From an uncultured Gammaproteobacteria bacterium (lineage in GTDB: Bacteria; Patescibacteriota; Microgenomatia; Daviesbacterales; UBA10151), in the NCBI GenBank assembly GCA_964405065.1, contig CAYOMO010000001.1, positions 1-63,836 on the forward strand: a stretch of 63,836 nt of DNA. The letters run 5' to 3'. Under the pieces are notes generated by a model. That model was not told where the DNA came from and made no database searches. It worked only from the letters and a program-made list of their open reading frames with translations. Position numbers and translations under genes: made by a program. Shown here piece by piece: positions 11,806 to 45,933 of this stretch; the stretch's first letter is position 1, and the number at the start of each line of letters is the position of its first letter.

Positions 11806-11874
11806 CTTCCAACTATATTTAATGTATAGACTTAATGGTTATCATAAAATTTATTTTGTTTGCGATCTTGGAAG

Positions 11875-32651: not shown

Positions 32652-33158
32652 ATCTACTTTGAAAGCTTTTTTTTGATCTTTTTTTCCAAAACGATCTTTA
32701 ATTTTTTTAGCTGGGATTCCTCCAACTATTGAATAAGGAGTAACATTTTTGGTAACAACTGCATTAGCACCAACAATTGCGCCTTTTCCGATTGTCACTG
32801 AGGGCATAATTACTGCATTGGCCCCTATCCAAACATCATCCTCAATAGTAACTTTTCCACCAAAATAACCTTGGAGTTTGATTGGTTTTAGGGCATTTGA
32901 GAAGGAATGATTTTCTGAAACAAGATTTACATTGTACCCAATCAAAACATAATTGCCGATATCTATGCCATTTTGGCCGCCAAGTTTTGTATCTGTATTT
33001 ATTAATACATGGTTACCAATTGAGATATTTTGAGGGCTCATCAGAGTCACATTACTCATGATATGTACATTTTGTCCCATTTTTCTAACAAAAATGCTCC
33101 AAAAAAAAGCTCTCATTGAAGCAAATAGATAAATTGTAGAGCCATATATAAAATTCAT
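32640..33158 (-). CDS. Hexapeptide-repeat (left-handed beta-helix) acyltransferase, WcaF/WbbJ-like sugar O-acetyltransferase
   Basis: 172 aa. Repeated [LIV]-G-x4 units. [49 protein letters not shown] is the classic C-terminal LbH acetyltransferase block. The 3' end overlaps the convergent upstream gene by 12 nt. Confidence 0.8.
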
Positions 33159-33174
33159 CTTGTGTAGCTGAATT

Positions 33175-33187
33175 TATACTATATACT
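33175..33187. promoter_or_regulatory. Tandem TATACT -10-like boxes in a ~37-nt divergent intergenic region
   Basis: TATACT at 33175-33180 and 33182-33187. The second lies 8 nt upstream of ATG 33196. The reverse complement reads TAGTAT/TATAGT toward the minus-strand acetyltransferase gene. Confidence 0.35.
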
Positions 33188-33195
33188 AGGTGAAA

Positions 33196-34242
33196 ATGAA
33201 ATATCCGCTGGTTAGTGTTGTGATAGCTACTTACAATTCTGAAAAAACATTGGTTGCTACTTTAGATTCGCTGAAAAAACAAATTTATCCTAGTAATAAA
33301 ATAGAGATATTAATAATCGATGGTGGGTCGACAGATGCCACACTACAAATCGCAAGACGATATAAAACTAAAATAATTCCTAATCCAAAAACAGAGCTTA
33401 TTTATGCAAAATATCTTGGATTTTATCAGGCAAAAGGCAAGTATTTAATTTTTCTTGATAGTGATGAAATTTTAGATAATAAAAAAAGTATTCAGATTAA
33501 AGTAAACTCGATAAGTAAAAATCCATATATTCGGGCTGTTTTGCTTGGTGGATATAAAACTCTTAAAACAACCCATCCGATTAATAATTATATAAATGAA
33601 TTTGGTGATCCTTTTTCATTTTTTATTTATCGAGAGTCTAAAGGGAATCGTTTTTTGACATCTGATTTTAGCCAAAGATTTTCCAGGCGAGTGCTTTATC
33701 AGGATCAGGACTGTCTGGTGATAGATTTTCAGTATGTCTATCCATTGCCTTTGATAGAATTGTGGGCTGGTGGAAGTATGATTGATCTGCAGTATGCCAG
33801 AAAAGCTTTTCCTCAGATTAAAAAAAATCCCGGGTTATTAGCGCATTTGTTTTATTTATTAAATGATCATGGTTCACTGTTGGCTATTAGCAAAAATGAT
33901 TTTACTTGTCATAATTCAGTTCCAAATTTGACTGCATATTTTAAGAAAATTGCATCAAGAGTTAAAAATAATGTTTTCAATACCGATATGGGGCAAGGTG
34001 GTTTTGGTGGAAGAAATAATTATCAAAATTCACTTTATCGTTTTAAAAAATATGCATTTATTTTATATGCATTATTATTTATCTGGCCTGTTTATGATGG
34101 TTTGTATTTGTCGATTACGAGACGGAAATTGGTATATCTTTTGCATCTTCTATTAACCTGGTATACCATGTGGTTAATTGGCTACTTTAACTTGATAAAA
34201 ATAGTCCGTTTAAAGATCGATATTGGATACTATGGTAAATAA
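33196..34242 (+). CDS. Glycosyltransferase family 2 with C-terminal membrane segments
   Basis: ATG 33196 (MKYPLVSVVIATYNSEKTL) is preferred over the tracked GTG 33190. Carries ILIIDGGSTDAT and FLDSDEIL. The tail is hydrophobic (FILYALLFIWPVY, LLHLLLTWYTMWLIGYF). Confidence 0.82.
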   Translation: MKYPLVSVVIATYNSEKTLVATLDSLKKQIYPSNKIEILIIDGGSTDATLQIARRYKTKIIPNPKTELIYAKYLGFYQAKGKYLIFLDSDEILDNKKSIQIKVNSISKNPYIRAVLLGGYKTLKTTHPINNYINEFGDPFSFFIYRESKGNRFLTSDFSQRFSRRVLYQDQDCLVIDFQYVYPLPLIELWAGGSMIDLQYARKAFPQIKKNPGLLAHLFYLLNDHGSLLAISKNDFTCHNSVPNLTAYFKKIASRVKNNVFNTDMGQGGFGGRNNYQNSLYRFKKYAFILYALLFIWPVYDGLYLSITRRKLVYLLHLLLTWYTMWLIGYFNLIKIVRLKIDIGYYGK

Positions 34243-34269
34243 AAAATATGCTATTATCAAACCAGTTTT

Positions 34270-35391
34270 ATGAATAAAATGCAGGTGCCTTTGGTAAATC
34301 TTGTGGCAAATTACAATGGTATTAAATCTGAAATAGATAGAGCAATTGCCAAGGTAGTCGCGTCTGGTTCTTTTATACTAAACGATGTTGTTGCTGACTT
34401 TGAAAGTCAATTTGCCACTTACTGTGATTCTAATTATAGTGTTGGAGTTGCATCAGGTACAGATGCGCTTTATTTAAGTTTATTGGCTTTGGATGTGAAA
34501 AAAGGTGACGAAGTAATTGTTCCTGCAAATACCTTTATCGCCAGTGTTTATGCAATCCTGTATGCTGGTGCATTACCAGTAATTGTTGATGTTGATGAAA
34601 ATACCTCATCAATTGATGTTTTACAAGTTGAAAAAAAAATAACTTCAAAAACCAAAGTTATTATGCCTGTTCATTTATATGGTAAGCCGGCTGATATGGC
34701 CTCACTTAAAAAAATTGCTAAACAAAAAGGAATTGCAATATTAGAAGATGCCTGTCAAGCCCATGGAGCCATGTATCATGAAAAAAAAACAGGATCATTG
34801 GGTGATATTGCCGCTTTTAGTTTTTATCCTGGGAAAAATTTGGGTGCTTACGGTGATGCTGGAGCAATAACTACCAATTCAGCTTCTTTGATGAAAAAGA
34901 TAAAATCGCTGAGAGAATACGGAGCCAAAAAGAAATATTATTTTGATCAGATTGGATATAATAGCCGGTTAGATGCTCTGCAAGCCAGTATTTTGCGAGT
35001 CAAATTGAGACATTTGGATGTTTGGAATAAAAAACGTCAACGAGCTGTAGCCTATTATCAAAAAAATCTACTACAAGATTTACCATTTATAAAAACTTTC
35101 ACAGAAGATCCCAATGCTAAATCGGTATATCATTTATTTGTTATTCAGGTACCACAAAGAGATGTTTTACAAAAATATTTACTTGAGTATGGTATTCAGA
35201 CAGGTATTCATTACCCGGTGCCGGTTCATTTACAAAAGTCACTTGATTTCCTCGGATACACTAAAAATTCTTTTCCGATAGCTGAAAAATTAGCTTCAAG
35301 TATTTTATCTTTGCCATTATATCCTGAGATTACTAAAGATCAGCAAGACTGGGTGATCGAAAAGATAAGGGATTTTTATTTGCATGATTAA
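34270..35391 (+). CDS. DegT/DnrJ/EryC1/StrS-family PLP-dependent sugar aminotransferase
   Basis: 373 aa. Carries GTDALYLSLLALDVKKGDEVIVPANTFIAS, and FSFYPGKNLGAYGDAGAITT with the PLP-binding Lys. Confidence 0.88.
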   Translation: MNKMQVPLVNLVANYNGIKSEIDRAIAKVVASGSFILNDVVADFESQFATYCDSNYSVGVASGTDALYLSLLALDVKKGDEVIVPANTFIASVYAILYAGALPVIVDVDENTSSIDVLQVEKKITSKTKVIMPVHLYGKPADMASLKKIAKQKGIAILEDACQAHGAMYHEKKTGSLGDIAAFSFYPGKNLGAYGDAGAITTNSASLMKKIKSLREYGAKKKYYFDQIGYNSRLDALQASILRVKLRHLDVWNKKRQRAVAYYQKNLLQDLPFIKTFTEDPNAKSVYHLFVIQVPQRDVLQKYLLEYGIQTGIHYPVPVHLQKSLDFLGYTKNSFPIAEKLASSILSLPLYPEITKDQQDWVIEKIRDFYLHD

Positions 35392-36391
35392 AGTTGGTGT
35401 TATTGGATTAGGTTACTGGGGGCCAAATTTTGTTCGTAATTTTATTCGTCATCCGGATTTTGAAGTGAGGTGGGTATGTGATCTTTCAGATCAAGCTCTA
35501 AAAAAATCCCAGCAATTATATCCCCATATTCCGCAAACGAGTGAATACGAGGTTGTTTTACAGGATCCTGAAATTGATTTAGTTATGGTGGTAACCCCGC
35601 CAGAAACCCATTTTCATATTGCAAAACAGGCCCTTATGCATAATAAACATGTTCTGATTGCTAAACCAATTACCTTGTCATACAAAGACGCACAAGTTTT
35701 ATTAAAATTAGCCCAAAAAAAAGGTTTACTTTTATATGGTGATTTGACTTATTTATATACAGGCGCTGTTAAATATATACAGCATTTTATTAAAAAAAAG
35801 CAGTTGGGAATTCCGCTGTATTATGATTCTACACGGACCAATTTAGGTCTAATTCAAAAAGAGGTTAATGTCATATGGGATCTGGCTCCGCATGATCTAG
35901 CTATAATTGATCGATGTTTTGGTATTTCACCAGTTAAAGTATTGGCTACGGCCTCTCATCATGTTAAAGGTTCTAAAAATTTTGAAATGGCGCATATCAC
36001 TCTGGAATACGATAATGGTTTTATAGCTCATATTCATCTTTCATGGGTATCACCAATTAAACTCAGAACCGTCCTGATTGGGGGGAGTAATAAAATGATT
36101 TTCTTTGATGATATTGAACCAGATGAAAAAATCCGGATTTATGATAAAGGAATTGATGTTATCGATGATGAGATTACCTATATGAAACCAATCTATCGAA
36201 ATGGTGATGTACTGATTCCTAAATTATCCAATGAGGAGGCAATTTATGTTGAGCTTTGTGAAATAGCAAAACAACTTATAAGCAAAAAAATTTCATATGA
36301 AAATGCTGAGATTAATATCAGGATTGTGAAGCTTCTTGAAGCTTGTGATATTTCTATCAAAACCGGTAAGAAAGTTTTACTTCGAAGATAA
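35384..36391 (+). CDS. Gfo/Idh/MocA-family NAD(P)-dependent sugar oxidoreductase (WbpB/GnnA-like candidate)
   Basis: 335 aa. N-terminal KVGVIGLGYWGPNFVRNF Rossmann motif, and the usual two-domain length. Overlaps the aminotransferase gene by 8 nt. Confidence 0.78.
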   Translation: MIKVGVIGLGYWGPNFVRNFIRHPDFEVRWVCDLSDQALKKSQQLYPHIPQTSEYEVVLQDPEIDLVMVVTPPETHFHIAKQALMHNKHVLIAKPITLSYKDAQVLLKLAQKKGLLLYGDLTYLYTGAVKYIQHFIKKKQLGIPLYYDSTRTNLGLIQKEVNVIWDLAPHDLAIIDRCFGISPVKVLATASHHVKGSKNFEMAHITLEYDNGFIAHIHLSWVSPIKLRTVLIGGSNKMIFFDDIEPDEKIRIYDKGIDVIDDEITYMKPIYRNGDVLIPKLSNEEAIYVELCEIAKQLISKKISYENAEINIRIVKLLEACDISIKTGKKVLLRR

Positions 36392-37015
36392 TTTTTTAGT
36401 AAAAAAGCGTCTTTCGGCTAATAAGCTATTTTTCGATAAATCATAATAGGTGGCTTCCGTTTCATTTTGTGAATAGGGGGTTAGTTTATCAAGTAAAAGT
36501 ATTACCTCTTTAAAAAGAGTCCAGCCAAAAGCCAGACATCTGTGATAAACATCTTTCACTTCATCCGTTTCAGGATAAATGGAAAATTTTACTTGTCCCC
36601 AGATTGGCCCATCGTCAATTCCGGGAGTTATTTCATGAATAGTTACTCCATGGATTGTTTCATTGTTTTTGAGAGCCCAATTGATAGGAGAAACACCGCG
36701 ATATTTTGGTAGAGGACTATTATGAATATTAATAATTCTTTTACAGCGATTAATGAATGATGGTTTGATTATTTTGTCATAGGTGACAGAGACAGCTAAG
36801 TCAATTGCTATAGATTGTGGTAGATCTTGGAAATGGCCGGATTCGACTATATCGACTTGATTTTTTTTAGCCCATTTGATTAAAGAAGAGGTCCAAGTTG
36901 GTTCAGGAACAACCGGAACTATCGCTACTAATGTGTATTTTGGGTGTCTTAAAAACCACTGAGCGACTTTAATAGCCAATCTGCCTTTTCCCAAAACAAC
37001 TACATTCTTTTTCAT
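36377..37015 (-). CDS. Fmt-like formyltransferase, probable sugar N-formyltransferase
   Basis: 212 aa, with an N-terminal catalytic domain only. IINIHNSPLPKYRGVSPINWAL matches the formyl_trans_N H-x-S-L-L-P-x-x-R-G block, and ITPGIDDGPIW supplies the conserved Asp. The 3' end overlaps the convergent gene by 15 nt. Confidence 0.78.
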   Translation of the reverse strand: MKKNVVVLGKGRLAIKVAQWFLRHPKYTLVAIVPVVPEPTWTSSLIKWAKKNQVDIVESGHFQDLPQSIAIDLAVSVTYDKIIKPSFINRCKRIINIHNSPLPKYRGVSPINWALKNNETIHGVTIHEITPGIDDGPIWGQVKFSIYPETDEVKDVYHRCLAFGWTLFKEVILLLDKLTPYSQNETEATYYDLSKNSLLAERRFFTKKLSSK

Positions 37016-37115: not shown

Positions 37116-39755
37116 ATGAAATTTAGTCAAACTGATCGCACCTTTTTGTTGATATTACTACTGTTAGTGGTGTGTCTTTTAGCCAGTTGGTTTAGACATG
37201 GAAATTTATTTATCGGAGCTGAAGAAGGAATTATTTTCCAAAGGATTGATTTGGTATATCAGAAAATGGTTTCTAGTGTCTGGCTTGATTTGTATTTGGG
37301 CGTACCTTATTTTAGCGATCTATCAAAAAGGCCACTATATGCATTTTTGACCTTACTATTTAATGTTGGCGCGCCGCCCTTTTTTTTGCAGGTAAGTATA
37401 TTTGGGTTGATTTTGATAGGGGCTGTAACTAGTACCTATCTACTTTTTAGAAAGAACTTTGGTTGGATTCGATTTCCGCGCTTGGTTGCTTTTTCTGGAG
37501 CTTTGTTTTATCTGAGCAATCCTTATGTGATTAGTCAAGTCTGGGCAAGAGGACTCTATCCTCAATTTTTTGCCTATCTGTATTACCCGGTTTTTTTACT
37601 TTTGATAGCATACTATTTTGATGCTAAAAAGCCCATTTATTTAATCATAAATTTAATTATTTCATTTGTATTTTCTGCAGCTATGGGAAACCCGAGCTAT
37701 GCAGTATCACTTTGGATACTTGTCAGCGGGTATTGGTTTTATAAAACATTTGAAAGTAATGGTTCATTTTTAAATAAATCTTTGCAAATAGTGATTCTTG
37801 GCTTTTTCTTGTTTGGTTGGGTAATAATAAATAGTTGGTGGCTGTTGGTAACAGTTTGGTATGCTCCAGCAGCTTTTTTAGGGAGTGGGAATGTTTTTGA
37901 AAATGCTTTATCTTCTTTGAGAGCAGTTAGCAGTCAATATTCGTTTTCATCAGTAATTAGACTATATCATCCGTTGCACTTTGAATCTTCGCTTTATTTT
38001 GGTATCTATAAAGCCAGTATATTTCAGTTTCTAAGTTGGATGGGAGTTGTAGTAATACTTTTTAGTCTGAGATTTATTCGTCAAAAAAGTATTCAGTTTT
38101 ATTTTGTAATGTTTTTGGTTGGTTTAGTTGTTTGTTTGGGATCTAATCAGCCATTTGGAGCTATTTTTGAATGGATATTTGTTCATTTTCCTCCACTACA
38201 AGTTTTTCGCAATCCATATGAAAAATTTGGACTAGTTTTTTTGCTGGCATATAGTGGGTTGTTTGGAGTTGGTATCACTGGGATATATATTTTTTTAAAA
38301 AAAATCAATAGCAGTTTAGCTTTTTTTTCAGTTGCAGTTTTATTAATTCTTATAACTGGAATATTTAATTGGCCATTATGGTCGAGTGAGGTGATTAGTT
38401 GGGGGAATGAAACAATTATTCCTAGTCGATATCGGTTACTTGATGATTGGCAGAAAAAAAACAATCCTACGGGCGGAAGAATTTTTTTTACTCCTTATTT
38501 ATCTAGCTTTGGTGCTTCATATAAGTGGCCAGGTGCTGATTATCATGGTAATGATCCTCTCTATCAACTGATAGATGCTTCTGTTTTAACTCAGACGGGG
38601 ACAAATCCTTATTTGATGGCTTTAAAACAGTATATTGGTCGTAAAAATTTAGTAGATTCGTTCCAAAGAATTGATGTGAAATATATTATTGATCGCTCGG
38701 ATATATATTCTACCAGGCAGGATAAAAAAAGTTTGGATTTTCTTACCGATAGCTTTTTTACCCCAGTACAACCGATGGGATCTATTTGCGAATCTTTGAA
38801 ATATGAGAATCATCATGTTACATGTTTGGTTCAGTCTTCTTTACAAGACATGTCTGAAGTCCAGAATATTCGTCTAGATTTCAAATCAGATGTGCCTGGA
38901 TATATAGAGGTATTTTTGGTCGATAAATATAATAACCAGCCTCGATGGAATGGGGAAAAAGAACAACAACTTCGTTATTCTATAGAAGATATTGGTCAAG
39001 TAAAAACAATTGATCTGTCGCTTTTTAATCCAACCGAAAATCCAGATACTGATTTTACTTCTATCAGACAAGTTGAAATATACTTTAGACCGCGAATCTT
39101 TTCGGATAATATTAATTTTCAAGTTATAAGTCTGGGTGTTGTTAAAGGTGAAAAGCAATTATTAGATTCTTATCATAAAATAGTTTCTTTAGATGGATTA
39201 AAAATTTATGGACCGAATCAGTCTGGTTTGATAAATCCAGTGAGAGCTTTTGCCCAGATTGCTTACACTGACTCATATGATCAGTTGTTTGATTCTTTTA
39301 AACACTCTTCAGAGACAGCTTATTTATTCAAATCTTCAAAGCTTGATGAATCTTTAACTGAAATACCTTTACAAACGGAGATTCAAACAATAAAAATGAA
39401 TCAGAATAAATATTTTGTTACTCTTCCCAAAGCTGGTAATTATTTTTTACGTCTAAATCAAAATTTCAATTCTGAATGGAAAGTAAAATATTTAAACTCT
39501 TCAAGTCATGTCAGTTTGACCTTTTTTGATCAATTAGCTTTGTTTTTATCATCTGATGTTGATTCTAATAAACACTTTTTAACTGATGGATATGCGAATG
39601 GTTGGTTGATAAAAGCTCAAAATCCAATTCAAATAGTTATCGTGTATAAACCACAAATTTTGCTAGATATTTTATGGCCGATTTCATTTGGTTTTTTTGG
39701 GTTTCTGATTTGCTTAGTAATCGGATTTTATGTATCTAAAAATAAGACGTTGTAA
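37116..39755 (+). CDS. Giant polytopic membrane protein, AftD/DUF3367-like GT-C candidate (paralog A)
   Basis: 879 aa. N-terminal ASWFRHGNLFIGAEEGIIF, ~14 hydrophobic segments, VFRNPYEKFGLVFLLAY, a ~400-aa soluble domain, and a C-terminal TM after GYANGWLI. Shares these landmarks with 56546-59812. Confidence 0.6.
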   Translation: MKFSQTDRTFLLILLLLVVCLLASWFRHGNLFIGAEEGIIFQRIDLVYQKMVSSVWLDLYLGVPYFSDLSKRPLYAFLTLLFNVGAPPFFLQVSIFGLILIGAVTSTYLLFRKNFGWIRFPRLVAFSGALFYLSNPYVISQVWARGLYPQFFAYLYYPVFLLLIAYYFDAKKPIYLIINLIISFVFSAAMGNPSYAVSLWILVSGYWFYKTFESNGSFLNKSLQIVILGFFLFGWVIINSWWLLVTVWYAPAAFLGSGNVFENALSSLRAVSSQYSFSSVIRLYHPLHFESSLYFGIYKASIFQFLSWMGVVVILFSLRFIRQKSIQFYFVMFLVGLVVCLGSNQPFGAIFEWIFVHFPPLQVFRNPYEKFGLVFLLAYSGLFGVGITGIYIFLKKINSSLAFFSVAVLLILITGIFNWPLWSSEVISWGNETIIPSRYRLLDDWQKKNNPTGGRIFFTPYLSSFGASYKWPGADYHGNDPLYQLIDASVLTQTGTNPYLMALKQYIGRKNLVDSFQRIDVKYIIDRSDIYSTRQDKKSLDFLTDSFFTPVQPMGSICESLKYENHHVTCLVQSSLQDMSEVQNIRLDFKSDVPGYIEVFLVDKYNNQPRWNGEKEQQLRYSIEDIGQVKTIDLSLFNPTENPDTDFTSIRQVEIYFRPRIFSDNINFQVISLGVVKGEKQLLDSYHKIVSLDGLKIYGPNQSGLINPVRAFAQIAYTDSYDQLFDSFKHSSETAYLFKSSKLDESLTEIPLQTEIQTIKMNQNKYFVTLPKAGNYFLRLNQNFNSEWKVKYLNSSSHVSLTFFDQLALFLSSDVDSNKHFLTDGYANGWLIKAQNPIQIVIVYKPQILLDILWPISFGFFGFLICLVIGFYVSKNKTL

Positions 39756-39784: not shown

Positions 39785-40810
39785 ATGAAAAAACATGAGC
39801 GCACATTTTTAATAAACGATACTTTAACTTCAGTAGTGGTAATTATTGATGATATTAATGTTTCCTTAATTGAAACTGTTAAAAAAATAGACCAAGTAAT
39901 TCAAAAAAAAACTCATCTTTATGAAATTGTATGTATTGACAATACTGGATATATTCTCGAGCAAGATCCGGTTTTATCTAGAATCCAGAAACAAAATTCA
40001 AATGTACGCTCCATAATTTTATCCAAAAAATATTCCAGAGACGTTGCAATCACGGTTGGGGTTGATTCGTGTATTGGGGATTACGTTATTTTTTATGATA
40101 CAAAGACTGACAGCCCTCAAGTATTACATTTATTTATTGATAATTTGGAAAAAGGATTTGATGTTGTAATTGGCAATCCTAAAAATCAGCAGGCAAGTTT
40201 GAGTTTGTTCAGTCGATTATTCTTGTCTATGGTAACTGCATTCTCTCGACAGGGGTATTTTTATCGTTCAAATCATTCACTGGCTTTAAATCGACGGGCT
40301 GTTCTCTCAATCACTCGCACTAGAAGAAAAAATCGCAACTTTACCTATTTGAATTCACTGATTGGACTAAAAAGACAGATCATCTCCTATGAAGGATTAT
40401 CCAATCAGTCTGCTAATGATCCTCGAACAGGTCTTTTTACAATTTTAAAAGTTGTTTTAGATGATGTGATATCCAATTCATTTAAGCCAATCAGATGGAT
40501 AAGTTTACTGGGTATGCTGGGAAGTACTTTGTTTTTATTGTATATTTTAGGCGTGGTTATCTTAATAATTGTCTTCCAAATGACTTGGATAGCCCCCCAG
40601 GGATGGATTAGTTTGGCGACAGTCATGGGAGCATTGTTTTTTTTACTTTTTTCTTTGCTGACTATTATGTCAGAATATTTAATTCGAATTATGGATGAGT
40701 CACGCAATGAACCACTTTATTTTATATCTCAGGAAAAGGATGGTTCTCACCGGATTTTTAAAAACCGCCAAAAAAGTCTGCAAAAAAAACTTAATATAAT
40801 AAAAATATGA
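39785..40810 (+). CDS. GtrB/CsbB-like membrane-anchored GT2 (polyprenyl-phosphate sugar synthase type) with atypical DxD region
   Basis: 341 aa. A GT-A domain followed by two C-terminal TMs and SEYLIRIMDESRNEPLYFI. This matches the GEYIGR..E...RP.YII ending of GtrB as I recall it. IVCIDNTG replaces the usual DDGS.D motif, and FYDTKTDSP sits where D-x-D-LQDP is expected. Confidence 0.6.
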   Translation: MKKHERTFLINDTLTSVVVIIDDINVSLIETVKKIDQVIQKKTHLYEIVCIDNTGYILEQDPVLSRIQKQNSNVRSIILSKKYSRDVAITVGVDSCIGDYVIFYDTKTDSPQVLHLFIDNLEKGFDVVIGNPKNQQASLSLFSRLFLSMVTAFSRQGYFYRSNHSLALNRRAVLSITRTRRKNRNFTYLNSLIGLKRQIISYEGLSNQSANDPRTGLFTILKVVLDDVISNSFKPIRWISLLGMLGSTLFLLYILGVVILIIVFQMTWIAPQGWISLATVMGALFFLLFSLLTIMSEYLIRIMDESRNEPLYFISQEKDGSHRIFKNRQKSLQKKLNIIKI

Positions 40811-41568
40811 AGACAGCTTTGATAGGATATTCTGGATTTGTTGGAAGTAATATTCTTTCTCAACAGTCTTTTACTGATCTTTATAATTCAAAGAATATTT
40901 CACAAATAACAGGTAAGAAATACGATCTAATTGTAAGTTGTGCTACTAGTTCATTGTTTTGGAAAGCAAATAAAGAACCAAAAGCAGATTGGTTACAAAT
41001 AAAAAGTCTTATCAAGCATCTTTCTTTAGTTAAAGCCTCCCAATTTGTTTTAATATCAACTATTTTTGTCTATCCAAATCCATACAATGTTGACGAAGAT
41101 ACTCTCATTGATACAAACTTATTAACCCCTTATGGACTTCATAGATACAAACTTGAACAATTTATTCAAAAAAAATTTAGACAGTCTGTCATTGTAAGAT
41201 TACCAAATTTGTTTGGTCAAAATCTGAAAAAAAATTTTATTTATGATCTGATTCATCACAACCGTTGGGATTTAACTCATAAAGATAGCTCGATGCAGTG
41301 GTACAATCTCGAAAACATTTGGCAAGATATTACTATCGCAATCAATAACCAATTGCCTTTGGTAAATTTTTCAGTAGCTCCTTTGGCTGTTAAAAGAATT
41401 GCTAAATACAGTCTAGGTGTCACTTTTCCTACTATCACAGAAAAACCTCCTTTAAACCATCGGATGCTGACTAAATATGATTATTTATATAAAAAGAAGA
41501 ATGGTTTTTTATACAATGAATACCCGACTTTGCAATCATTGAAAGATTTTATTTTAAAAAACAGATGA
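40807..41568 (+). CDS. Short NAD(P)-binding Rossmann protein, atypical SDR/epimerase-reductase-like
   Basis: 253 aa. Has an N-terminal ALIGYSGFVGSNI (GxxGxxG). PYGLHRYKLE sits where extended SDRs carry YxxxK. ATGA overlap with the upstream gene. Confidence 0.55.
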   Translation: MKTALIGYSGFVGSNILSQQSFTDLYNSKNISQITGKKYDLIVSCATSSLFWKANKEPKADWLQIKSLIKHLSLVKASQFVLISTIFVYPNPYNVDEDTLIDTNLLTPYGLHRYKLEQFIQKKFRQSVIVRLPNLFGQNLKKNFIYDLIHHNRWDLTHKDSSMQWYNLENIWQDITIAINNQLPLVNFSVAPLAVKRIAKYSLGVTFPTITEKPPLNHRMLTKYDYLYKKKNGFLYNEYPTLQSLKDFILKNR

Positions 41569-42383
41569 AACTAGGTTTTTTTAATATTGCTTGGGATAAA
41601 TCTCAAGATCGACAAATTGCTAAGTTATTAAAGAAATATGACTTTGAAGGGATAGAAGTGGCTCCGGCTAAAGTCTGGGATATACCAACAAAAGCTACAA
41701 AAAACCAGATCAAAGAATATAGAGACTTTTGGCAAGATCATGGTATTTCCATTGTTTCCATGTGTTCACTTTTTTTCCCCAAACAAGAACTTAATTTTTT
41801 CAATGGACATTTGGCTCAAAATAAGATGCTTGATTATTATGAAAAAATTACTGATATTGCAGTAGGACTTGGGGCTAAAAAATTGGTCTTTGGTTCTCCT
41901 AAAAACAGAGAATATTATCAAAAGGATTTATTATTGGTAGATGAGATAGCAAGAGATTTTTTTTCTAAACTGGCACAGATTGCTGAGCAAAAGCAATTAA
42001 TACTTTGCATCGAGCCGATCCCCATGCAGTATGGAACTCGTTTTATAAATTCGATATCTGAAGCACTCACACTTGTAGAAGCGGTAAATCACCCAGCATT
42101 CAGATTTCATTTGGATACCGGAGCTGCCACTATTAATCAAGAAAATATTGAGCTCATTTTCCATAAGATGATTAAATATCTTGAGCATGTTCATCTAAGT
42201 GAAGATTACTTGGGAGAATTAGGTCGTGGAAAAGTAGATCATCCACTTTTTGCGAAATTACTTAATAAATATGGTTATACGGAATGGAAAATAGTTGAGA
42301 TGCGTTCGGATGGTAAATCTGATACTATTGGACAAATTGAAAGGGTTTTAGCATATGTCAAAAAAACTTACAACTTTATTTAA
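41565..42383 (+). CDS. Xylose-isomerase-like TIM-barrel protein (sugar isomerase/epimerase, AP_endonuc_2 family)
   Basis: 272 aa. Alternating beta/alpha pattern with metal-ligand-type residues (CIEPIP, FHLDTGA, HVHLSED), as in the family. ATGA overlap with the upstream gene. Confidence 0.6.
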   Translation: MKLGFFNIAWDKSQDRQIAKLLKKYDFEGIEVAPAKVWDIPTKATKNQIKEYRDFWQDHGISIVSMCSLFFPKQELNFFNGHLAQNKMLDYYEKITDIAVGLGAKKLVFGSPKNREYYQKDLLLVDEIARDFFSKLAQIAEQKQLILCIEPIPMQYGTRFINSISEALTLVEAVNHPAFRFHLDTGAATINQENIELIFHKMIKYLEHVHLSEDYLGELGRGKVDHPLFAKLLNKYGYTEWKIVEMRSDGKSDTIGQIERVLAYVKKTYNFI

Positions 42384-43161
42384 ATTAGCCAAAAAATGGC
42401 AATTACCGCTTTATTCAAGTCATATTTTTTCTACCAAAAAAAGTATTTACTGTTTAGGAATCCCTGTTATCAATGAAGGAAGCAGACTAAAAAATGAGTT
42501 AAAAAAACTAAGAAAGTATGCTGATAGAGTCGATATTATTATTTTTGATGGAGGTAGTACAGATGGTTCAACTGATCCCGAATTTTTAAAGAAGCAAGGG
42601 GTAAGGGCTTTGTTAATTAAACAATCTCCGGGTAAACAAGGGACTCAACTAAGAATGGGATTTGCATTTGCTCTTCAGGAGGGTTATCAAGGAGTGATTA
42701 CAGTGGATGGTAACAATAAAGACGGAATTGAAGCGATCCCAAAATTTATTGAAATGCTTGAAAAAGGCTATGATTTTATACAAGGTTCGCGGTATGTCAA
42801 AGGAGGTAAAGCGATAAATACACCACATATGAGACATATTGGCAATCACTGGATTTTAGCGAATATGTTTTCATTAACTGCTGGATTTCATTTTACTGAT
42901 GTTACTAATGGTTTTCGAGCATATTCTAAAAAGCTTCTACTTGATTCACAAGTAAATCCTTTTCGAGAAATATTTGTAGGTTATGAGCTGATTTTTTATT
43001 TAGGAGTTAGAGCAGCACAACTAAATTACAAAGTAAGTGAAATACCTGTCTTGAGAAAATATCCTTTACATACTGTACCAACGAAAATACGAGGAATATC
43101 TAGTTTGTTTAGAGTTTTAAAAGTTGGGATACAAACAGCAATTGGTTATTATAATCCCTGA
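42355..43161 (+). CDS. Glycosyltransferase family 2, DPM1-like polyprenyl-phosphate glycosyltransferase candidate
   Basis: 268 aa. Carries GIPVINEGSRL, IIIFDGGSTDGS, VITVDGNNKDGIEAIPKFIEM, IQGSRYVKGG and DVTNGFRAYSKKLL. Confidence 0.72.
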   Translation: MSKKLTTLFKLAKKWQLPLYSSHIFSTKKSIYCLGIPVINEGSRLKNELKKLRKYADRVDIIIFDGGSTDGSTDPEFLKKQGVRALLIKQSPGKQGTQLRMGFAFALQEGYQGVITVDGNNKDGIEAIPKFIEMLEKGYDFIQGSRYVKGGKAINTPHMRHIGNHWILANMFSLTAGFHFTDVTNGFRAYSKKLLLDSQVNPFREIFVGYELIFYLGVRAAQLNYKVSEIPVLRKYPLHTVPTKIRGISSLFRVLKVGIQTAIGYYNP

Positions 43162-44231
43162 ATTTCTATCTCTTCAATAATGTCATAGATATTATCAATT
43201 TTTCCTCCTAAAAGCAGATGGAAATTGGGAATACCATAGTTTTTGTGATAATAGATTGGTCTGCCATCATTATTTTCGGTTATTTTTAAAACGGCTTTAG
43301 ACTGAAATAAAGACTCTGAAGAGTGGATTTTATTCAAACCTGGTAAATATCTAGAAACATCTTTTGACATAAAAGAGAAAGCTGAATCAGAGATGGTTTT
43401 TTTATCAAGATCTTCATCCGTACCATACCAACTAATTCTTGGGGTATATCTGACATGATGAAGCGAATGCATTTTTTTATCAGGAAAAGGAAGCAAGGAA
43501 AAAAAAGGCCCATCCATGATAGTAATACCATATTTTTTATAAGGTAAAGGAAGTTTTACTAGGGGCATTTCGGTGTATTCAAATTTAACTGATATTAGTG
43601 GTAAATCTGATTGCTGTAGGATGGTATTGATTCCTGCATAAGTACAGTTTAGAACTTTTGTTCCTACAATATTTTTTCCATTCTGAAGAGAGACAGTGAT
43701 ATTTTTATCTGCTGTGGATTTTACTTTCATAACTTGAGAGTTAAACCAAATTTCAATTTGTTTTTTCATAATTTTATGATGTAGGTCATGTCTTAAGATA
43801 GCCGCATCAAATTCAAACTCTTCTACTTGAAAAACTTCTTCAATAAGTGCTTGGTTAAACATTTCTTTGATAAATTCAGGTGCTTTTTTTATCGGAGTAT
43901 TGATCAAATGACAAAATCTCTCAAACTGAATTGCATTTACTTTAGAATTATGTTTTGCAATGGCATAAAAAGACGGAAATTTTTTAACAATCGATGATTT
44001 AAACTCTTTACAAAATTTAACGAAATTTTGATGGGAACGAATAGCTGTTATAAATGATCGAGGGTAATGGTATCCGTTGTGAACACGGGCTTGATTGTAA
44101 TAAGAAGCTTTGGTGAGTAGCTGAGCTTCTTTTTCAATGAGTAACACTTGCGAATACCTTTTTTTCAAATGAAGGGCTAATAAGGAACCATATAATCCAC
44201 CTCCGATAATAATTACATCATACTTTTTCAT
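43149..44231 (-). CDS. FAD-dependent oxidoreductase (DAO-type dinucleotide-binding fold)
   Basis: 360 aa. N-terminal KKYDVIIIGGGLYGSLLALHLKKRYSQVLLIEKE is a GxGxxG + acidic-residue FAD motif. The 3' end overlaps the convergent GT2 gene by 13 nt. Confidence 0.75.
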   Translation of the reverse strand: MKKYDVIIIGGGLYGSLLALHLKKRYSQVLLIEKEAQLLTKASYYNQARVHNGYHYPRSFITAIRSHQNFVKFCKEFKSSIVKKFPSFYAIAKHNSKVNAIQFERFCHLINTPIKKAPEFIKEMFNQALIEEVFQVEEFEFDAAILRHDLHHKIMKKQIEIWFNSQVMKVKSTADKNITVSLQNGKNIVGTKVLNCTYAGINTILQQSDLPLISVKFEYTEMPLVKLPLPYKKYGITIMDGPFFSLLPFPDKKMHSLHHVRYTPRISWYGTDEDLDKKTISDSAFSFMSKDVSRYLPGLNKIHSSESLFQSKAVLKITENNDGRPIYYHKNYGIPNFHLLLGGKIDNIYDIIEEIEIQGL

Positions 44232-44274
44232 GACTTGTGCTCTTAGGGGTTTAGTTTACAATATCCCTACCAAT

Positions 44275-45933
44275 ATGGTGAAGTTGTGGTTTTTACATTC
44301 AAAAAAGCATATATTTTCATTGATTTTTCTATCTTTGATCGGAATAGTTGTGTTTAGGCCATCATTTTCAATGGGTTTGTATGGGGATGAGTGGCAGATG
44401 TTGTGGTTTAGTAAAGCAATTCAACAAGGATCCTATCAAATAGCTTCTGGTGATATTTGGAATTCTTATTTAAATGAGATGGTTGTTTTTAAATGGATAG
44501 AATATTTTTTTGGGTATGATGGTAGATTTTACTACCTTTTTTCATTTTTGTGTCGCTTTTTATCTGTCGGAGTCAGTTACTGGTTTTTTTATAAACATAC
44601 CAAGTCAATATTAGCTGCGGTAACTATTAGTTCATTATTTATGGTATCGCCAATTGGTATTGAGGCAACTGATTGGGCTCGCAATTTTGATTCATATTTA
44701 GGTATAGCATTACTATTATTTTTAATTGATCAGTTGATCAAAATATCTTCTTTGACAAAAGTTTTATTTATAACCTTTATTTCTATCATACTTTTTTTAA
44801 TTAATCCTCTTAGATCACATGGTACCGTTTTAATTATCTTAGGAATTATCTGTACAAGATTTATAACAGAAAGATTTAATAAATACCGTCTAATGACGCT
44901 TTGTTTAATTCTTAGTATTTATTTGTTTTTTACTAAAATTGAAGTTTTTGGTGGACTTACAACTTTTGAACCATTTCCATTCACACTTTATTTGAGCTCA
45001 ATTAAAAATTTGGTTGGTAATATGGGTCGGGTTCTTGTTCCAAGCTTTGGCAATCAACCGCTGTTATTTGGAGGAGTAGCAATTTTATTTCTACTATGGA
45101 AATGGGAGCTATTTAATTTGCATTCTACAATCGGAAAAGTCTTGTTTGCGATCTTTGTTTTGAGCTTTTTATACGTTGAGTATCAAATTTTTAATGCAGC
45201 TATTTTTGCTAAAAGTGTCTATATTGGGATTTTTTTTCTTGGCTGGATTATCACCAGTATTGTATTTCATATCATTCAACGACAAAATGCAAAATTGGTT
45301 GAAATAAACACCTTATTTCTTCTGACAATCGCTTTTTTGATATTTCCTTTTATCAGGCAGCCCCATTTTCAAGCCGCCTCGGATCATCGGTATCTTGTAT
45401 ATTCAGCCTTAGCGGTGGTTTGGATAGTTTTGGGAGTTTTTATGAAAAAAAACTCTTTTATTAGTCAATTTTTTATCTATTTACTACTGTTTACTCTTAT
45501 ATATTATTATTCTTGGCTAACTCATCAATTTCTTTCTGAAAAAAGTGTTTCACACAATTATTTGTACTCGACTTTTTTATGGAATCAGATATATCAGTTA
45601 GCTCCAGATGTAGATTCCGATAAAAGATCAAATGTTTTTTTTCTGAAAAATAACTTTACAGATTCAAGTGTTTTTGGAGATAGTGTCAACTTCGGTTTTA
45701 TGTTCCATTTCGGCCTTTTATTTAATATTTCAAAAGAAAAAAATCTGCCATATTTATTTGTAGAGGATCCTCAGACAATATATTCTTTGCTTAATGATGG
45801 TAAACAATCACTGCGCTATTTCCCAACTGAAAGAGTATTCAGGGTTGATGATAGTCTTTTTTTTAAAATTGATAATGGCAAAGTAAAAAAGCTGTCATAT
45901 CCGGAGGTGATCTATGAAAAATCGGCAGATTAA
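44275..45933 (+). CDS. Polytopic membrane protein, GT-C-like candidate
   Basis: ATG 44275 (MVKLWFLHSKKH) is preferred. The tracked ATG 44230 would share a CATG with the divergent gene's start and leave no promoter space. Multi-TM. First loop is FSMGLYGDEWQMLWF with an Asp-Glu pair. Soluble C-terminal ~130 aa. Confidence 0.5.
   Translation: MVKLWFLHSKKHIFSLIFLSLIGIVVFRPSFSMGLYGDEWQMLWFSKAIQQGSYQIASGDIWNSYLNEMVVFKWIEYFFGYDGRFYYLFSFLCRFLSVGVSYWFFYKHTKSILAAVTISSLFMVSPIGIEATDWARNFDSYLGIALLLFLIDQLIKISSLTKVLFITFISIILFLINPLRSHGTVLIILGIICTRFITERFNKYRLMTLCLILSIYLFFTKIEVFGGLTTFEPFPFTLYLSSIKNLVGNMGRVLVPSFGNQPLLFGGVAILFLLWKWELFNLHSTIGKVLFAIFVLSFLYVEYQIFNAAIFAKSVYIGIFFLGWIITSIVFHIIQRQNAKLVEINTLFLLTIAFLIFPFIRQPHFQAASDHRYLVYSALAVVWIVLGVFMKKNSFISQFFIYLLLFTLIYYYSWLTHQFLSEKSVSHNYLYSTFLWNQIYQLAPDVDSDKRSNVFFLKNNFTDSSVFGDSVNFGFMFHFGLLFNISKEKNLPYLFVEDPQTIYSLLNDGKQSLRYFPTERVFRVDDSLFFKIDNGKVKKLSYPEVIYEKSAD

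Follow-up and report, generated by a model that had tools for sequence, protein, structure and literature searches.

The stretch of DNA analysed here in its full length of 63,836 nucleotides (the window) is a 64-kb glycan island, crowded with GT2, GT4 and GT-C genes, in which an atypical SDR, a xylose-isomerase-like TIM barrel, a DPM1-like GT2 and an FAD protein are encoded side by side. The question raised by this locus is whether these enzymes jointly remodel a sugar carried on polyprenyl phosphate, as a first-pass annotation had proposed. The four open reading frames delimited there match the ORF list exactly, the strings quoted from them (GYSGFVG, PYGLHRYKLE and YDVIIIGGGLYGS) are all present in the translations, and the family assignments are upheld by Pfam (Epimerase, AP_endonuc_2, Glycos_transf_2 and DAO). 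These ORFs are real genes and not chance ORFs, as direct searches return thousands of homologues each for the SDR, the flavoprotein and GT2S (best E-values 1e-147 to 1e-192), a TIM-barrel homologue adjoins the SDR in 74 of 80 related loci, and synteny is retained across phyla.

Coordinates of the cassette genes and of the adjacent polytopic membrane proteins within the window
Feature	Position	Strand	Length	Description	Evidence
Polytopic membrane protein	37116..39755	+	879 aa	Candidate GT-C transferase	~9 TM-like segments
GT2L	39785..40810	+	341 aa	GtrB/ArnC-like GT2, fifth cassette member	Two C-terminal transmembrane helices
SDR	40807..41568	+	253 aa	Atypical extended SDR	Pfam, motifs, AlphaFold model, Foldseek
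TIM barrel	41565..42383	+	272 aa	Xylose-isomerase-like	PF01261, NCBIfam, PDB matches
GT2S	42355..43161	+	268 aa	Soluble DPM1-like GT2	PDB 5mlz, NCBIfam, invariant residues
Flavoprotein	43149..44231	-	360 aa	DAO-fold FAD protein	PF01266, family profile, Foldseek
Polytopic membrane protein	44230..45933	+	567 aa	Second candidate GT-C-type donor user	~10 TM-like segments

The SDR family occurs at no fewer than 579 genome loci, and neighbourhoods were counted in the best 80 of them. The complete five-gene set is found within a span of 9 kb or less in 59 of these 80; at most of the remaining 21, at least one cassette gene lies about 2 kb or less from a contig end, and in a few of the 80 no flavoprotein is present within 10 kb. 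The only families common to more than 60 loci are the five of the cassette. The block, whose co-conservation had been named as a check on the original proposal, is therefore very strongly co-conserved, and its four genes do belong together, but they are not the full unit, which also includes the upstream GtrB/ArnC-like GT2L. That protein had been described as the partner of the giant membrane protein encoded before it; it is instead a cassette member, its gene adjoining that of the flavoprotein in most of the 80 loci. The five-gene synteny spans more than 12 phyla, some archaea included, with carriers among Patescibacteria, Paenibacillus, Acidobacteriota, Planctomycetota, Myxococcota, Cyanobacteria, Gemmatimonadota, Gammaproteobacteria, Microbacterium, Methanothrix and others. 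No papers on the five-gene cassette were found in the literature, and this widespread, uncharacterised gene set has apparently not been studied so far.

Several genomes carry cassette members as single polypeptides, in the form of SDR-TIM (P0363, P0371 and P0493), TIM-SDR (P0492) and DAO-SDR (P0391 and P0420) fusions. These fusions show the flavoprotein, the TIM barrel and the SDR to be a joint unit, whose oxidase, TIM enzyme and reductase work together on one substrate. At a further locus, cut off on its upstream side, a GFO/IDH/MocA sugar-type dehydrogenase is fused to the SDR (P0376); characterised members of the GFO/IDH/MocA family include sugar C3/C2 dehydrogenases. In two genomes from two phyla (L017 and L079) GT2S forms a single polypeptide with a polytopic membrane protein, one of these partners having a PMT-like DWHPP motif, and about 30 of the 80 loci encode small GtrA-like or ArnE/F-like membrane proteins directly beside the cassette; these fusions and neighbours tie the cassette to polyprenyl-phosphate-sugar glycosylation.

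The flavoprotein is of DAO type and not of DprE1 type, as had been correctly noted at the outset. It matches PF01266 at 3.2e-17, its family profile matches GlpO (4x9m) at 1.4e-8, and the best solved sequence-level relative of the family is the Mycoplasma L-alpha-glycerophosphate oxidase. Searches by Foldseek with the structural model (pLDDT 89.7) give 4ysh, 4x9m and 2qcu as best matches (TM about 0.75, identity 13–16%), placing the protein closest to GlpO, GlpD, L-2-hydroxyglutarate dehydrogenase (L2HGDH) and glycine oxidase, which are secondary-alcohol and amine oxidases. We propose that it acts on a secondary alcohol of a sugar, as an oxidase or a dehydrogenase. Quinones are generally absent from Patescibacteria, and the presence of the cassette in this group and in the strict anaerobe Methanothrix leaves the electron acceptor in doubt, which counts against the preferred explanation.

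The TIM barrel (AP_endonuc_2, 1.3e-29) comes closest in NCBIfam to 5-keto-L-gluconate epimerase, psicose 3-epimerase and L-ribulose-5-P 3-epimerase, all scoring under cut-off, with weak matches to hydroxypyruvate and oxo-tetronate isomerases, while its PDB matches are ketose 3-epimerases and the 3-keto-D-glucoside 4-epimerase 6wn6. Across 74 sequences, conservation is at least 95% for the metal/catalytic tetrad E150-D184-H210-E245 and for a VFGSPxNR loop. Residues E156, H186 and R215, which bind the ketose in the Agrobacterium psicose 3-epimerase, are not conserved in the cassette protein. It is proposed to be an epimerase or isomerase working beside a keto group. As the superfamily also includes dehydratases, a deoxy product is conceivable, which counts against the preferred explanation.

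The SDR is matched by the Pfam families Epimerase (2e-6) and RmlD_sub_bind (1e-5; 25.2 bits, narrowly missing the cut-off of 27 bits). Invariant across 81 sequences are GxxGxxG, S84-T85 and Y109-x3-R113, so that the catalytic region is indeed atypical, with an invariant YxxxR in place of YxxxK. The AlphaFold model (pLDDT 95.9) is closest by Foldseek to RmlD (1vl0) and GalE, at TM about 0.73 and identity 12–18%, with GDP-keto-sugar reductases also among the top matches. Within the trio, the protein is proposed to act as the keto-reductase that depends on NAD(P)H; its RmlD-type keto-reductase fold counts in favour of oxidise, epimerise and reduce chemistry, and against the preferred explanation in that the fold is also that of nucleotide-sugar enzymes. 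It is an extended SDR of RmlD/GalE fold and not a classical one like DprE2.

GT2S, the most conserved of the cassette proteins, matches Glycos_transf_2 at 2.2e-10, and its best solved relative is the Pyrococcus dolichol-phosphate mannose synthase (1.7e-9). Its NCBIfam matches, to dolichyl-phosphate hexose transferase (1e-16), AglJ and PpgS, are all under cut-off. We propose that GT2S is a polyprenyl-phosphate hexose synthase. Alignments of GT2L with GtrB (5ekp, 3e-17) and ArnC (2e-15) cover its full length; it has TM-like segments near residues 245 and 277, and matches PgfS (6e-24) and ArnC (8e-19) in NCBIfam, both far under cut-offs. Both proteins deviate at the DxD motif, making donor and activity uncertain, a point against the preferred explanation: GT2S has an invariant D118-G-N120-x-K122-D123 where the Pyrococcus enzyme has D-A-D-L-Q, and the motif of GT2L is degenerate, reading YDTK in the window and being variable in 20 cassette homologues, with a downstream DPP retained. 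The gene order at locus L088, which is GtrA, GT9, PMT_2 GT-C, DAO-SDR fusion, TIM and DPM1-like GT2, speaks for a lipid-carrier route. This variant, which looks to be in working order, does without GT2L; its lack there, and that of a flavoprotein near the cassette in a few loci, count against the preferred explanation.

In 65 of 76 loci, at least one protein of 400 or more residues with seven or more TM-like segments is encoded no more than 6 kb from the cassette. In the window, the 879-aa protein had been called an AftD-like giant, a description partly supported by a BLASTP match (3e-27) to the 1088-aa protein of the window, which itself matches PF11847 (GT-C_AftD) weakly, at 3e-4 and below threshold, but not by any direct family match, as searches of Pfam, NCBIfam and the PDB gave none. 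It has a long non-TM stretch between its TM-like segments, one of which is C-terminal. The 567-aa protein, for which no Pfam or NCBIfam match was found, is encoded divergently from the flavoprotein; the homologue in the closest relative is 520 aa long, with a start that lies 140 nt from the flavoprotein gene, and the start annotated in the window probably lies too far upstream. A flippase candidate was not found within the window, which also counts against the preferred explanation. The SDR, the TIM barrel and the flavoprotein have no predicted transmembrane segment, which fits action at the cytoplasmic face.

Taken together, we judge the chances to be even that the cassette provides extracytoplasmic GT-C-type transferases with a remodelled polyprenyl-phosphate hexose. 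In such a pathway the DPM1-like GT2 would take a common hexose from its nucleotide sugar and place it on polyprenyl phosphate at the cytoplasmic membrane face, after which the flavoprotein would oxidise one ring hydroxyl to a ketone, the metal-dependent TIM barrel would invert or shift the stereocentre beside this ketone through an enediolate, and the YxxxR SDR would reduce the ketone with NAD(P)H to leave an epimeric (rare) hexose on the lipid. The GtrB-like protein, having kept its membrane hairpin and lost its DxD, might, speculatively, scaffold the soluble enzymes at the membrane or hold the lipid-linked sugar for them, chiefly for the flavoprotein. The product would next be flipped, candidates in other genomes being the GtrA- or ArnE/F-like proteins, and transferred to a surface glycan by the polytopic GT-C-like neighbours. 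The genes, folds, catalytic motifs, co-conservation, fusions and gene neighbourhoods are observed here; the substrate, the order of the four enzymatic steps and the site of oxidation we infer from family membership, fusions and gene context. We hold it to be about as likely as not that oxidation and reduction take place on the lipid-linked sugar and not on its nucleotide-sugar precursor. The remodelling module as first conceived is sustained by co-conservation, the fusions, the link to glycosylation and the lack of contrary orthology, but neither its restriction to four genes nor the pairing of the GtrB-like protein with the giant was borne out.

The trio could possibly, though with lesser probability, act before lipid loading, on a nucleotide sugar or sugar-1-phosphate in solution, and the DPM1-like GT2 would then load the finished rare sugar onto polyprenyl phosphate for the same end use. 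The best structural matches of the SDR model are all nucleotide-sugar enzymes, genes for rmlA, rmlB, rmlC and mannose-1-phosphate guanylyltransferase lie near the cassette in 10–30 of the 80 loci, and the three enzymes have no predicted transmembrane segment. Yet the 253-aa SDR scores 21.6 bits against the NCBIfam rmlD cut-off of 224, the flavoprotein gene is nearly always beside that of the membrane-anchored GtrB-like protein, two precedents exist for lipid-level epimerisation in three-component systems of this kind, and we know of no DAO-fold flavoproteins or xylose-isomerase-like TIM barrels in nucleotide-sugar pathways. These points are not decisive. Orthology to nucleotide-sugar or unrelated enzymes, named at the outset as grounds for rejection, was not found: matches in NCBIfam are weak, those by fold reach no more than 12–18% identity, and the cassette enzymes have no orthology to RmlD, UGM, DprE1 or DprE2, reaching 24.2 bits against a cut-off of 304 for UDP-galactopyranose mutase and 36.8 bits against 460 for type 2 glycerol-3-phosphate oxidase.

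It is unlikely that the target is not a sugar ring but a polyprenol/dolichol-like carrier, oxidised from alcohol to aldehyde, or a glycerol- or polyol-phosphate substituent. The glycerol-3-phosphate oxidase of Mycoplasma as nearest solved relative of the flavoprotein, and the hydroxypyruvate and oxo-tetronate isomerases of the TIM superfamily, would suit such a substrate, but the TIM barrel is most closely related to keto-sugar epimerases, a sugar-type GFO/IDH/MocA dehydrogenase is fused to the SDR in one variant, and the matches to small-molecule enzymes all fall far under family cut-offs. Chance adjacency is common in a 64-kb glycan island, but five-gene synteny over more than 12 phyla and member-to-member fusions are strong evidence against ordinary, unrelated polysaccharide-cluster neighbours without a joint function, which we regard as highly improbable.

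For sugar epimerisation on a lipid carrier, as preferred here, DprE1/DprE2 and the Citrobacter youngae O2 SDR are precedents. As in DprE1/DprE2, the decaprenyl-phosphoribose 2'-epimerase of mycobacteria, a flavoprotein would oxidise a hydroxyl of the sugar, and the ketone would be reduced by a second, NAD(P)H-dependent enzyme of the SDR superfamily; the enzymes pair up, those of the cassette even being fused in some genomes, and the genes lie beside polyprenyl-phosphate-sugar machinery and GT-C transferases (GtrA-like Rv3789 and the arabinofuranosyltransferases AftA-D/Emb in the DprE system). There is, however, no family-level homology, as the cassette flavoprotein has a DAO fold where that of DprE1 is VAO, and the SDR is an extended one with YxxxR where DprE2 is classical, and the cassette adds a TIM-barrel enzyme between oxidation and reduction. 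Its lipid-linked sugar is proposed to come from a DPM1-like GT2 and a nucleotide hexose rather than from a UbiA-type synthase and PRPP, and it occurs in many phyla, whereas DprE1/DprE2 are found mainly in Actinobacteria.

In the undP-ribofuranose three-component system of Citrobacter youngae O2 the SDR epimerase ORF13 turns undP-Ribf into undP-Xylf (Kelly et al. 2024, PMC11127046). Here too an auxiliary, cytoplasmic enzyme of the SDR superfamily diversifies a lipid-linked monosaccharide donor ahead of flipping and GT-C use, but ORF13 is a single GalE-like SDR with canonical YxxxK, the pentofuranose donor is made from PRPP, the flippase is of MATE type, and there is no flavoprotein, TIM barrel or GT2 (PMC11127046). 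The proposed sequence of oxidation, epimerisation beside the ketone and reduction is shared with the 3-keto-glycoside route of E. coli YcjQ/YcjR/YcjS, which converts gulosides to glucosides, and with ketose 3-epimerases, as are the xylose-isomerase-like TIM barrel and its E-D-H-E metal site. Those systems, unlike the cassette, act catabolically on free glycosides or ketoses, with NAD-dependent dehydrogenases on both sides.

The overall layout resembles GtrA/GtrB/GtrC, CsbB/GtcA/YfhO and ArnC/ArnE-F/ArnT, in which a GT2 enzyme makes the polyprenyl-phosphate sugar, a small flippase turns it across the membrane and a GT-C enzyme transfers it; GT2L aligns with GtrB and ArnC, and in other genomes the cassette has ArnF-like and GtrA-like neighbours. 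In those systems the sugar is transferred as loaded, save for deformylation by ArnD, whereas the cassette has a GtrB-like member that lacks the conserved DxD and intercalates three redox/epimerase enzymes.

An ORF list reproduced exactly the positions that the first-pass annotation had assigned to four neighbouring genes, encoding an SDR, a TIM barrel, a DPM1-like GT2 (GT2S) and a flavoprotein; the motifs it quoted were found in the translations, and its family assignments are upheld by the Pfam matches (see table). Overlaps of 4 and 29 nt join the three genes on the plus strand, and the minus-strand flavoprotein gene is convergent on them with a 13-nt overlap. Together with GT2L, a GtrB/ArnC-like GT2, they form a cassette within a single long glycan-biosynthesis island that makes up the window, with a GC content of about 33% and nearly all genes on one strand.

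Cassette genes and other features of the window, with intervals from two related loci
Feature	Position	Strand	Length (aa)	Match or remark
PMT_2-type GT-C paralogues	7434-18572 and 22879-24444		551-584	Six consecutive, plus a seventh
Methyltransferase/GT2 protein	27372-28790		472	N-terminal SAM-methyltransferase domain, C-terminal GT2 domain
Amino-sugar gene set	31569-37015			UDP-GlcNAc 2-epimerase-like, hexapeptide acetyltransferase, GT2, DegT aminotransferase, GFO/IDH/MocA oxidoreductase, formyltransferase
GFO/IDH/MocA protein	35384-36391
Giant polytopic protein	37116-39755	+	879
GT2L	39785-40810	+		Directly upstream of SDR gene; full-length alignment with GtrB and ArnC; two C-terminal TM segments
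SDR	40807-41568	+	253	Pfam Epimerase; RmlD_sub_bind slightly under cut-off
TIM barrel	41565-42383	+	272	Pfam AP_endonuc_2, 1.3e-29
GT2S	42355-43161	+	268	Pfam Glycos_transf_2
Flavoprotein	43149-44231	-	360	Pfam DAO, 3.2e-17
Overlapping start codons	44229-44231			Flavoprotein (-) and 567-aa protein (+)
Polytopic protein	44230-45933	+	567
Carbamoyltransferase	54790-56544
Giant polytopic protein	56546-59812		1088
Giant polytopic protein	60324-62951		875
Carbamoyltransferase genes, Woesebacteria genome L003	17428-20780, 13802-14719			Two carbamoyltransferases and an ornithine-carbamoyltransferase-like gene, adjoining the cassette
P0376, locus L089	139-1902			SDR fused to GFO/IDH/MocA dehydrogenase

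Besides the cassette, the island holds about seven PMT_2-type GT-C paralogues, a YfhO-like protein, a Wzx-like flippase, many GT2 and GT4 genes, several methyltransferases, a WbpB/E/D/I-like amino-sugar set with a formyltransferase, a carbamoyltransferase and an acyltransferase. Among named homologues the closest belong to Levy-, Roizman-, Woese- and Daviesbacteria, which makes a Microgenomates-group member of the Patescibacteria the probable source; the closest relative carries a collinear locus with proteins that are 78-87% identical. Six of the PMT_2-type paralogues, all but one of them on the plus strand, share 27-35% mutual identity and the seventh is more distant, a tandem family of polyprenyl-phosphate-sugar-dependent transferases that is unusually large for a single locus. 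The amino-sugar set, which is like a WbpB/E/D/I-type 3-amino-sugar pathway with an added formyl option, is immediately followed by the gene for the 879-aa membrane protein; the closest relative has the set in collinear order. Elsewhere in the window a methyltransferase domain and a GT2 domain are joined in one protein. The presence of carbamoyltransferases both in this island and beside the L003 cassette hints at a carbamoylated sugar.

The cassette extends well beyond this lineage. A word-indexed search returned 5114 matches to the SDR family, while an SDR profile run against 1.84 billion cluster representatives gave 3286 at E <1e-3 and 978 at E <1e-30. Scanning one genome per species located at least 579 loci, the best 80 of which were fetched with 10-kb flanks. 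These include Patescibacteria (Levy-, Woese-, Pace- and Parcubacteria and many Saccharibacteria/TM7), about a dozen Paenibacillus species, Gorillibacterium, Acidobacteriota, Planctomycetota, Myxococcota, Cyanobacteria, Gemmatimonadota, Gammaproteobacteria, Bdellovibrionota, Chlamydiae, Chloroflexia, Microbacterium, Methanothrix and one nanoarchaeote. Among these best 80 of at least 579 loci, the SDR gene is accompanied by the TIM barrel in 74, by GT2S in about 74, by the flavoprotein in about 63-65 and by a GtrB-like GT2 in most. The first-pass annotation had described a four-gene block and taken its co-conservation as one test that could refute it; the block passes strongly, and the unit that is conserved has five genes rather than four, with GT2L added. 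All five are present in 59 of the 80 loci, and in most of those that fall short one or more cassette genes lie within some 2 kb of the end of a contig.

In all-against-all clustering, the cassette families alone exceed 60 loci, the next family being RmlB with 30. Adjacency is nearly universal for the flavoprotein and GT2L genes and for the SDR and TIM-barrel genes, with DAO>GT2L>GT2S>SDR>TIM (31 loci) and DAO>GT2L>SDR>TIM>GT2S (14 loci) as the commonest orders; the arrangement of the window, GT2L>SDR>TIM>GT2S with DAO convergent, recurs in 7. Neither in the window nor in the copy from Paenibacillus does any of the five proteins reach the cut-off of an NCBIfam model, and a search of the full-text literature found no description of the cassette, with DprE and Saccharibacteria together leading to tuberculosis papers only. 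A link to the characterized S-layer glycan locus of Paenibacillus alvei CCM 2051 found no support: the review of that locus describes WsfH/WsfD glucosylation and no cassette genes; a P. alvei genome, possibly of another strain, does carry the cassette.

Fusions were sought with phmmer against the window's proteins among the best 150 SDR-family representatives, several of which are double the normal length; long stop-to-stop ORF "fusions" in high-GC loci were left out as artefacts. The SDR is followed by the TIM barrel in P0363, P0371 and P0493, the order is reversed in P0492, and the flavoprotein is joined to the SDR in P0391 and P0420. Because fusions exist in both orders and between both pairs, they provide good indirect evidence that the oxidase, TIM enzyme and reductase work in successive steps on one molecule. 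P0376 joins the SDR to a GFO/IDH/MocA dehydrogenase, from a family that includes sugar C3/C2 dehydrogenases. The TIM-barrel gene is next in this locus and no flavoprotein gene was seen before the contig ends 138 nt upstream; if there is none further upstream, the dehydrogenase stands in the oxidase's place. At 176 bits, the dehydrogenase half of P0376 is a homologue of the window's own GFO/IDH/MocA protein, so that the cassette-type SDR may also cooperate with such sugar dehydrogenases. Beside other cassettes, homologues of this protein were found only in the window's closest relative, together with a marginal match in L022 (23.7 bits, E 8e-6).

The SDR matches the extended-SDR families PF01370 and PF04321 and has an RmlD/GalE fold. 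Its AlphaFold model (pLDDT 95.9) has RmlD, GalE and GDP-keto-sugar reductases as structural neighbours (TM ~0.73, 12-18% identity). GxxGxxG, S84-T85 and Y109-G-x-x-R113 are invariant in 81 sequences, so the usual catalytic lysine is always arginine (YxxxR), and a basic loop, GxGLKKN, is also conserved. Orthology to RmlD was rejected: the rmlD equivalog TIGR01214 scores 21.6 bits against a cut-off of 224, PDB 3sc6 matches at E 0.018, the motif is YxxxR and not YxxxK, and the likeness is one of fold only. A subfamily of 307-336 aa (P0365, P0368, P0370 and about 35 others) is longer; P0365, the one inspected, has about 30 residues inserted near residue 173; the other long members match the profile in two stretches with a break near position 150.

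The TIM barrel matches PF01261 with 104 bits against a cut-off of 31.1, and its E150, D184, H210 and E245, at least 95% conserved, align with the metal/catalytic tetrad of ketose 3-epimerases (5zfs). Its nearest families are epimerases working beside a carbonyl, namely 5-keto-L-gluconate epimerase, psicose/tagatose 3-epimerases and L-ribulose-5-P 3-epimerase, and it also matches a solved 3-keto-D-glucoside 4-epimerase. All equivalog scores lie far under their cut-offs, with IolO best at 60.8 bits against 300 and psicose epimerase at 45.9 against 300. Three further positions, which bind the ketose in Agrobacterium psicose 3-epimerase, are G, A and L in the window protein and are not conserved; the family has its own conserved VFGSPxNR loop instead. 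As dehydratases also occur in the TIM superfamily, a deoxy product is possible.

The flavoprotein model (pLDDT 89.7) has glycine oxidase, Mycoplasma GlpO, sarcosine oxidase, GlpD and L-2-hydroxyglutarate dehydrogenase as neighbours (TM ~0.75, 13-16% identity), and GlpO is the best match of the family profile (1.4e-8). The GlpO and L-2-hydroxyglutarate dehydrogenase equivalogs give 36.8 bits against 460 and 29.1 against 299. Its Pfam match is PF01266 (DAO) and no VAO-type family; these matches bear out the earlier description of a DAO-type protein, so it is no homologue of DprE1. A UGM-like mutase was also rejected, since TIGR00031 gives 24.2 bits against 303.75, the match to PDB 1i8t covers the N-terminal Rossmann motif only, and the top 50 structural neighbours listed contain DAO-type oxidases and no UGM. 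The first-pass annotation had named clear orthology to enzymes such as RmlD or UGM as refuting its proposal, and neither was found. No TM segments are predicted in the SDR, TIM barrel or flavoprotein. The cassette occurs in Methanothrix, an anaerobe, and quinones are generally absent from Patescibacteria.

Of the cassette genes GT2S is conserved best, scoring 230-310 bits across phyla. The protein is like the catalytic domain of Dol-P-Man synthase, with Pyrococcus DPMS (5mlz, 1.7e-9) as its best solved relative, and ends in a C-terminal helix that looks amphipathic by eye. It carries an invariant D118-G-N120-x-K122-D123 in place of the D-A-D-L-Q of Pyrococcus DPMS. GT2L matches GtrB (3e-17) and ArnC (2e-15) over its full length, TM hairpin included. 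At its DxD position 20 cassette homologues are variable and mostly non-acidic (NIY, NAN, LPE, NPA), with DTK in the window, while the DPP that follows, the other GT2 motifs and the membrane hairpin are kept. A canonical DxD is thus absent as a conserved feature from both proteins. From these sequences, GT2S is predicted to be a working polyprenyl-phosphate hexose synthase, and GT2L may be a non-canonical or catalytically inactive paralogue, a pseudo-glycosyltransferase acting as membrane anchor or lipid-sugar holder. The latter idea fits the near-constant adjacency of GT2L to the flavoprotein gene; GT2L is dispensable in at least one variant (L088).

Two genomes have GT2S fused to a polytopic membrane protein. 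The partner in a Parcubacterium (L079, 1024 aa) is from a family of about 700 aa encoded separately beside the cassette in 21 other loci, and that in a Saccharibacterium (L017, 753 aa) is from a family of about 450 aa that carries a PMT-like DWHPP motif in a loop and, in sister genomes, is encoded by a gene of its own after GT2S. Both recur next to the cassette, the former (cluster 8, ~700 aa) in L016-L035 and the latter (cluster 21, ~450-500 aa) in L016, L018, L031, L033 and L066. A Pfam scan of the two gave no match, and they are candidate new GT-C families, each fused once to a DPM1-like GT2. The locus of the P0420 fusion (L088) runs GtrA_DPMS_TM, GT9, PMT_2 GT-C, DAO-SDR, TIM, DPM1-like GT2, an order that reads as a textbook three-component system with the trio of flavoprotein, TIM barrel and SDR inserted.

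Candidate small flippases of GtrA or ArnE/F type stand beside the cassette in about 30 of the 80 other loci; none was found in the window. Iterated searches found GtrA-like proteins in 14 loci, mostly directly after the TIM gene, and ArnE/F-like proteins in 14-16, among them two side by side in Methanothrix. The flavoprotein gene of Paenibacillus is immediately preceded by one for a 116-aa EamA/SMR-type protein, whose best NCBIfam match is ArnF, the Und-P-Ara4N flippase subunit, over the full length at 4e-9 and under the cut-off. By a crude hydropathy count without a matched control, 65 of 76 loci encode, no more than 6 kb away, a protein of 400 aa or more with seven or more TM-like segments.

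On its two sides the window's cassette is flanked by the 879-aa and 567-aa polytopic proteins, neither of which matches a recognized GT-C family; the former has no family match and, even at E up to 10, no PDB match. The label "AftD-like" given to it earlier is only loosely justified, because the AftD GT-C Pfam model is touched by the related 1088-aa protein alone (BLASTP 3e-27 between the two), weakly and below threshold. The three giants are distantly related to each other and share a layout of N-terminal TM bundle, long non-TM stretch and C-terminal TM segment. The start codons of the flavoprotein and 567-aa genes overlap divergently, leaving no promoter space, and in the closest relative the homologue of the latter, with 520 aa, begins 140 nt from the flavoprotein gene; the longest-ORF start of the 567-aa gene is therefore probably too far upstream. 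No UbiA-like family was found among window ORFs of at least 100 aa, where GT2 synthases are present instead, and a motif-plus-TM screen of related loci gave no convincing UbiA-type synthase, with one loose motif match (L067, 474 aa).

The genes, folds, catalytic residues, synteny and fusions observed form the basis of the following model. GT2S would place a common hexose on polyprenyl phosphate at the cytoplasmic face, the flavoprotein would oxidize one ring hydroxyl, the TIM barrel would epimerize or isomerize a neighbouring centre through a metal-stabilized enediolate, and the YxxxR SDR would then reduce the ketone. The remodelled polyprenyl-phosphate hexose would be flipped and used by GT-C-type transferases. 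With oxidation by flavin and reduction by nicotinamide, the conversion would be directional, as in DprE1/DprE2. We infer from this basis the identity of the sugar, the carbon oxidized, the order of steps and the action of the trio after rather than before lipid loading. The first-pass annotation had proposed that the block remodels a polyprenyl-phosphate sugar by oxidation, isomerization and reduction; this is supported in part, as regards the module, its logic of oxidation and reduction and its connection with lipid-carrier glycosylation, with the gene set corrected.

Chance adjacency of the cassette genes is excluded for practical purposes, and the cassette is very probably one functional module feeding a polyprenyl-phosphate-sugar/GT-C route. 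That the trio carries out an oxidize-epimerize-reduce sequence on a sugar is probable, while the full model, with the trio acting on a lipid-linked sugar, is evenly poised. In the main alternative, which we consider rather unlikely, the same pathway would have the trio act on a nucleotide sugar, in keeping with the SDR fold and with the rml or manC genes that are frequent neighbours. Against it stand the shortness of the SDR and the linkage of the flavoprotein to a GT2 anchored in the membrane, and we know of no DAO-type flavoprotein or xylose-isomerase-like barrel in nucleotide-sugar pathways. It is highly improbable that the trio acts on a lipid moiety or a polyol phosphate. Returning to the lipid-linked sugar, we put forward tentatively a widespread and previously unrecognized pathway that epimerizes a hexose on its polyprenyl-phosphate carrier, in which a DAO oxidase, a metal-dependent TIM epimerase and a YxxxR SDR would be held at the membrane by a degenerate GtrB paralogue, supplying a rare-hexose donor to diverse GT-C enzymes in candidate-phyla-radiation bacteria, Firmicutes, many Gram-negative phyla and some archaea.

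Very few systems are known to change the stereochemistry of a sugar on its lipid carrier: DprE1/DprE2, a major tuberculosis drug target, and a recent Citrobacter SDR. If the proposal is true, the cassette adds a third solution, unrelated to these two in its enzymes and far more widespread than either. It reaches more than a dozen phyla and is present even in the reduced genomes of Patescibacteria, Saccharibacteria included, about whose envelope glycans next to nothing is known. It would also offer new enzymes for glycoengineering (the YxxxR SDR, a lipid-sugar TIM-barrel epimerase and possibly a pseudo-GtrB scaffold) and help to annotate thousands of genes labelled only "FAD-dependent oxidoreductase", "sugar phosphate isomerase/epimerase" or "NAD-dependent epimerase".

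The closest systems in mode of working are DprE1/DprE2 and the ORF13 SDR of Citrobacter youngae O2, and the closest in chemistry is the YcjQRS 3-keto-glycoside route. ORF13 converts undP-Ribf to undP-Xylf inside a synthase/flippase/GT-C system, and its authors were aware of no epimerases in such side-chain glycosylation systems except DprE1/E2 (PMC11127046). DprE1 is a VAO/PCMH-fold oxidase (FAD_binding_4 with an ALO-type cap), whereas the cassette has a PF01266 DAO protein; DprE2, with about 254 aa and YxxxK, is of the classical SDR type, whereas the cassette SDR, similar in length, is extended and has YxxxR. The DprE system obtains its lipid-linked substrate from PRPP through a UbiA-type synthase, while the cassette has GT2 synthases. 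A DprE-like pairing of oxidase and reductase on one substrate finds its counterpart, by indirect Rosetta-stone evidence, in the DAO-SDR fusions; as to the polyprenyl-phosphate sugar on which DprE1/DprE2 act, it is genomic context that points to such a substrate for the cassette. GtrA/GtrB/GT-C three-component systems employ a GT2 polyprenyl-phosphate sugar synthase, as the cassette would by the homology of GT2S and GT2L, although the canonical DxD of that synthase is missing from both. With ketose 3-epimerases and 3-keto-glycoside epimerases the TIM barrel has PF01261 and the E-D-H-E tetrad in common, but neither the equivalog score nor the ketose-binding residues. The cassette enzymes lack the defining features of DprE1, DprE2, RmlD, UGM and all equivalog families tested, and are members only of the broad DAO, extended-SDR, PF01261 and GT2 superfamilies. 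The cassette is unusually widespread, and because it sits in cultivable Paenibacillus species it is experimentally accessible and directly testable.
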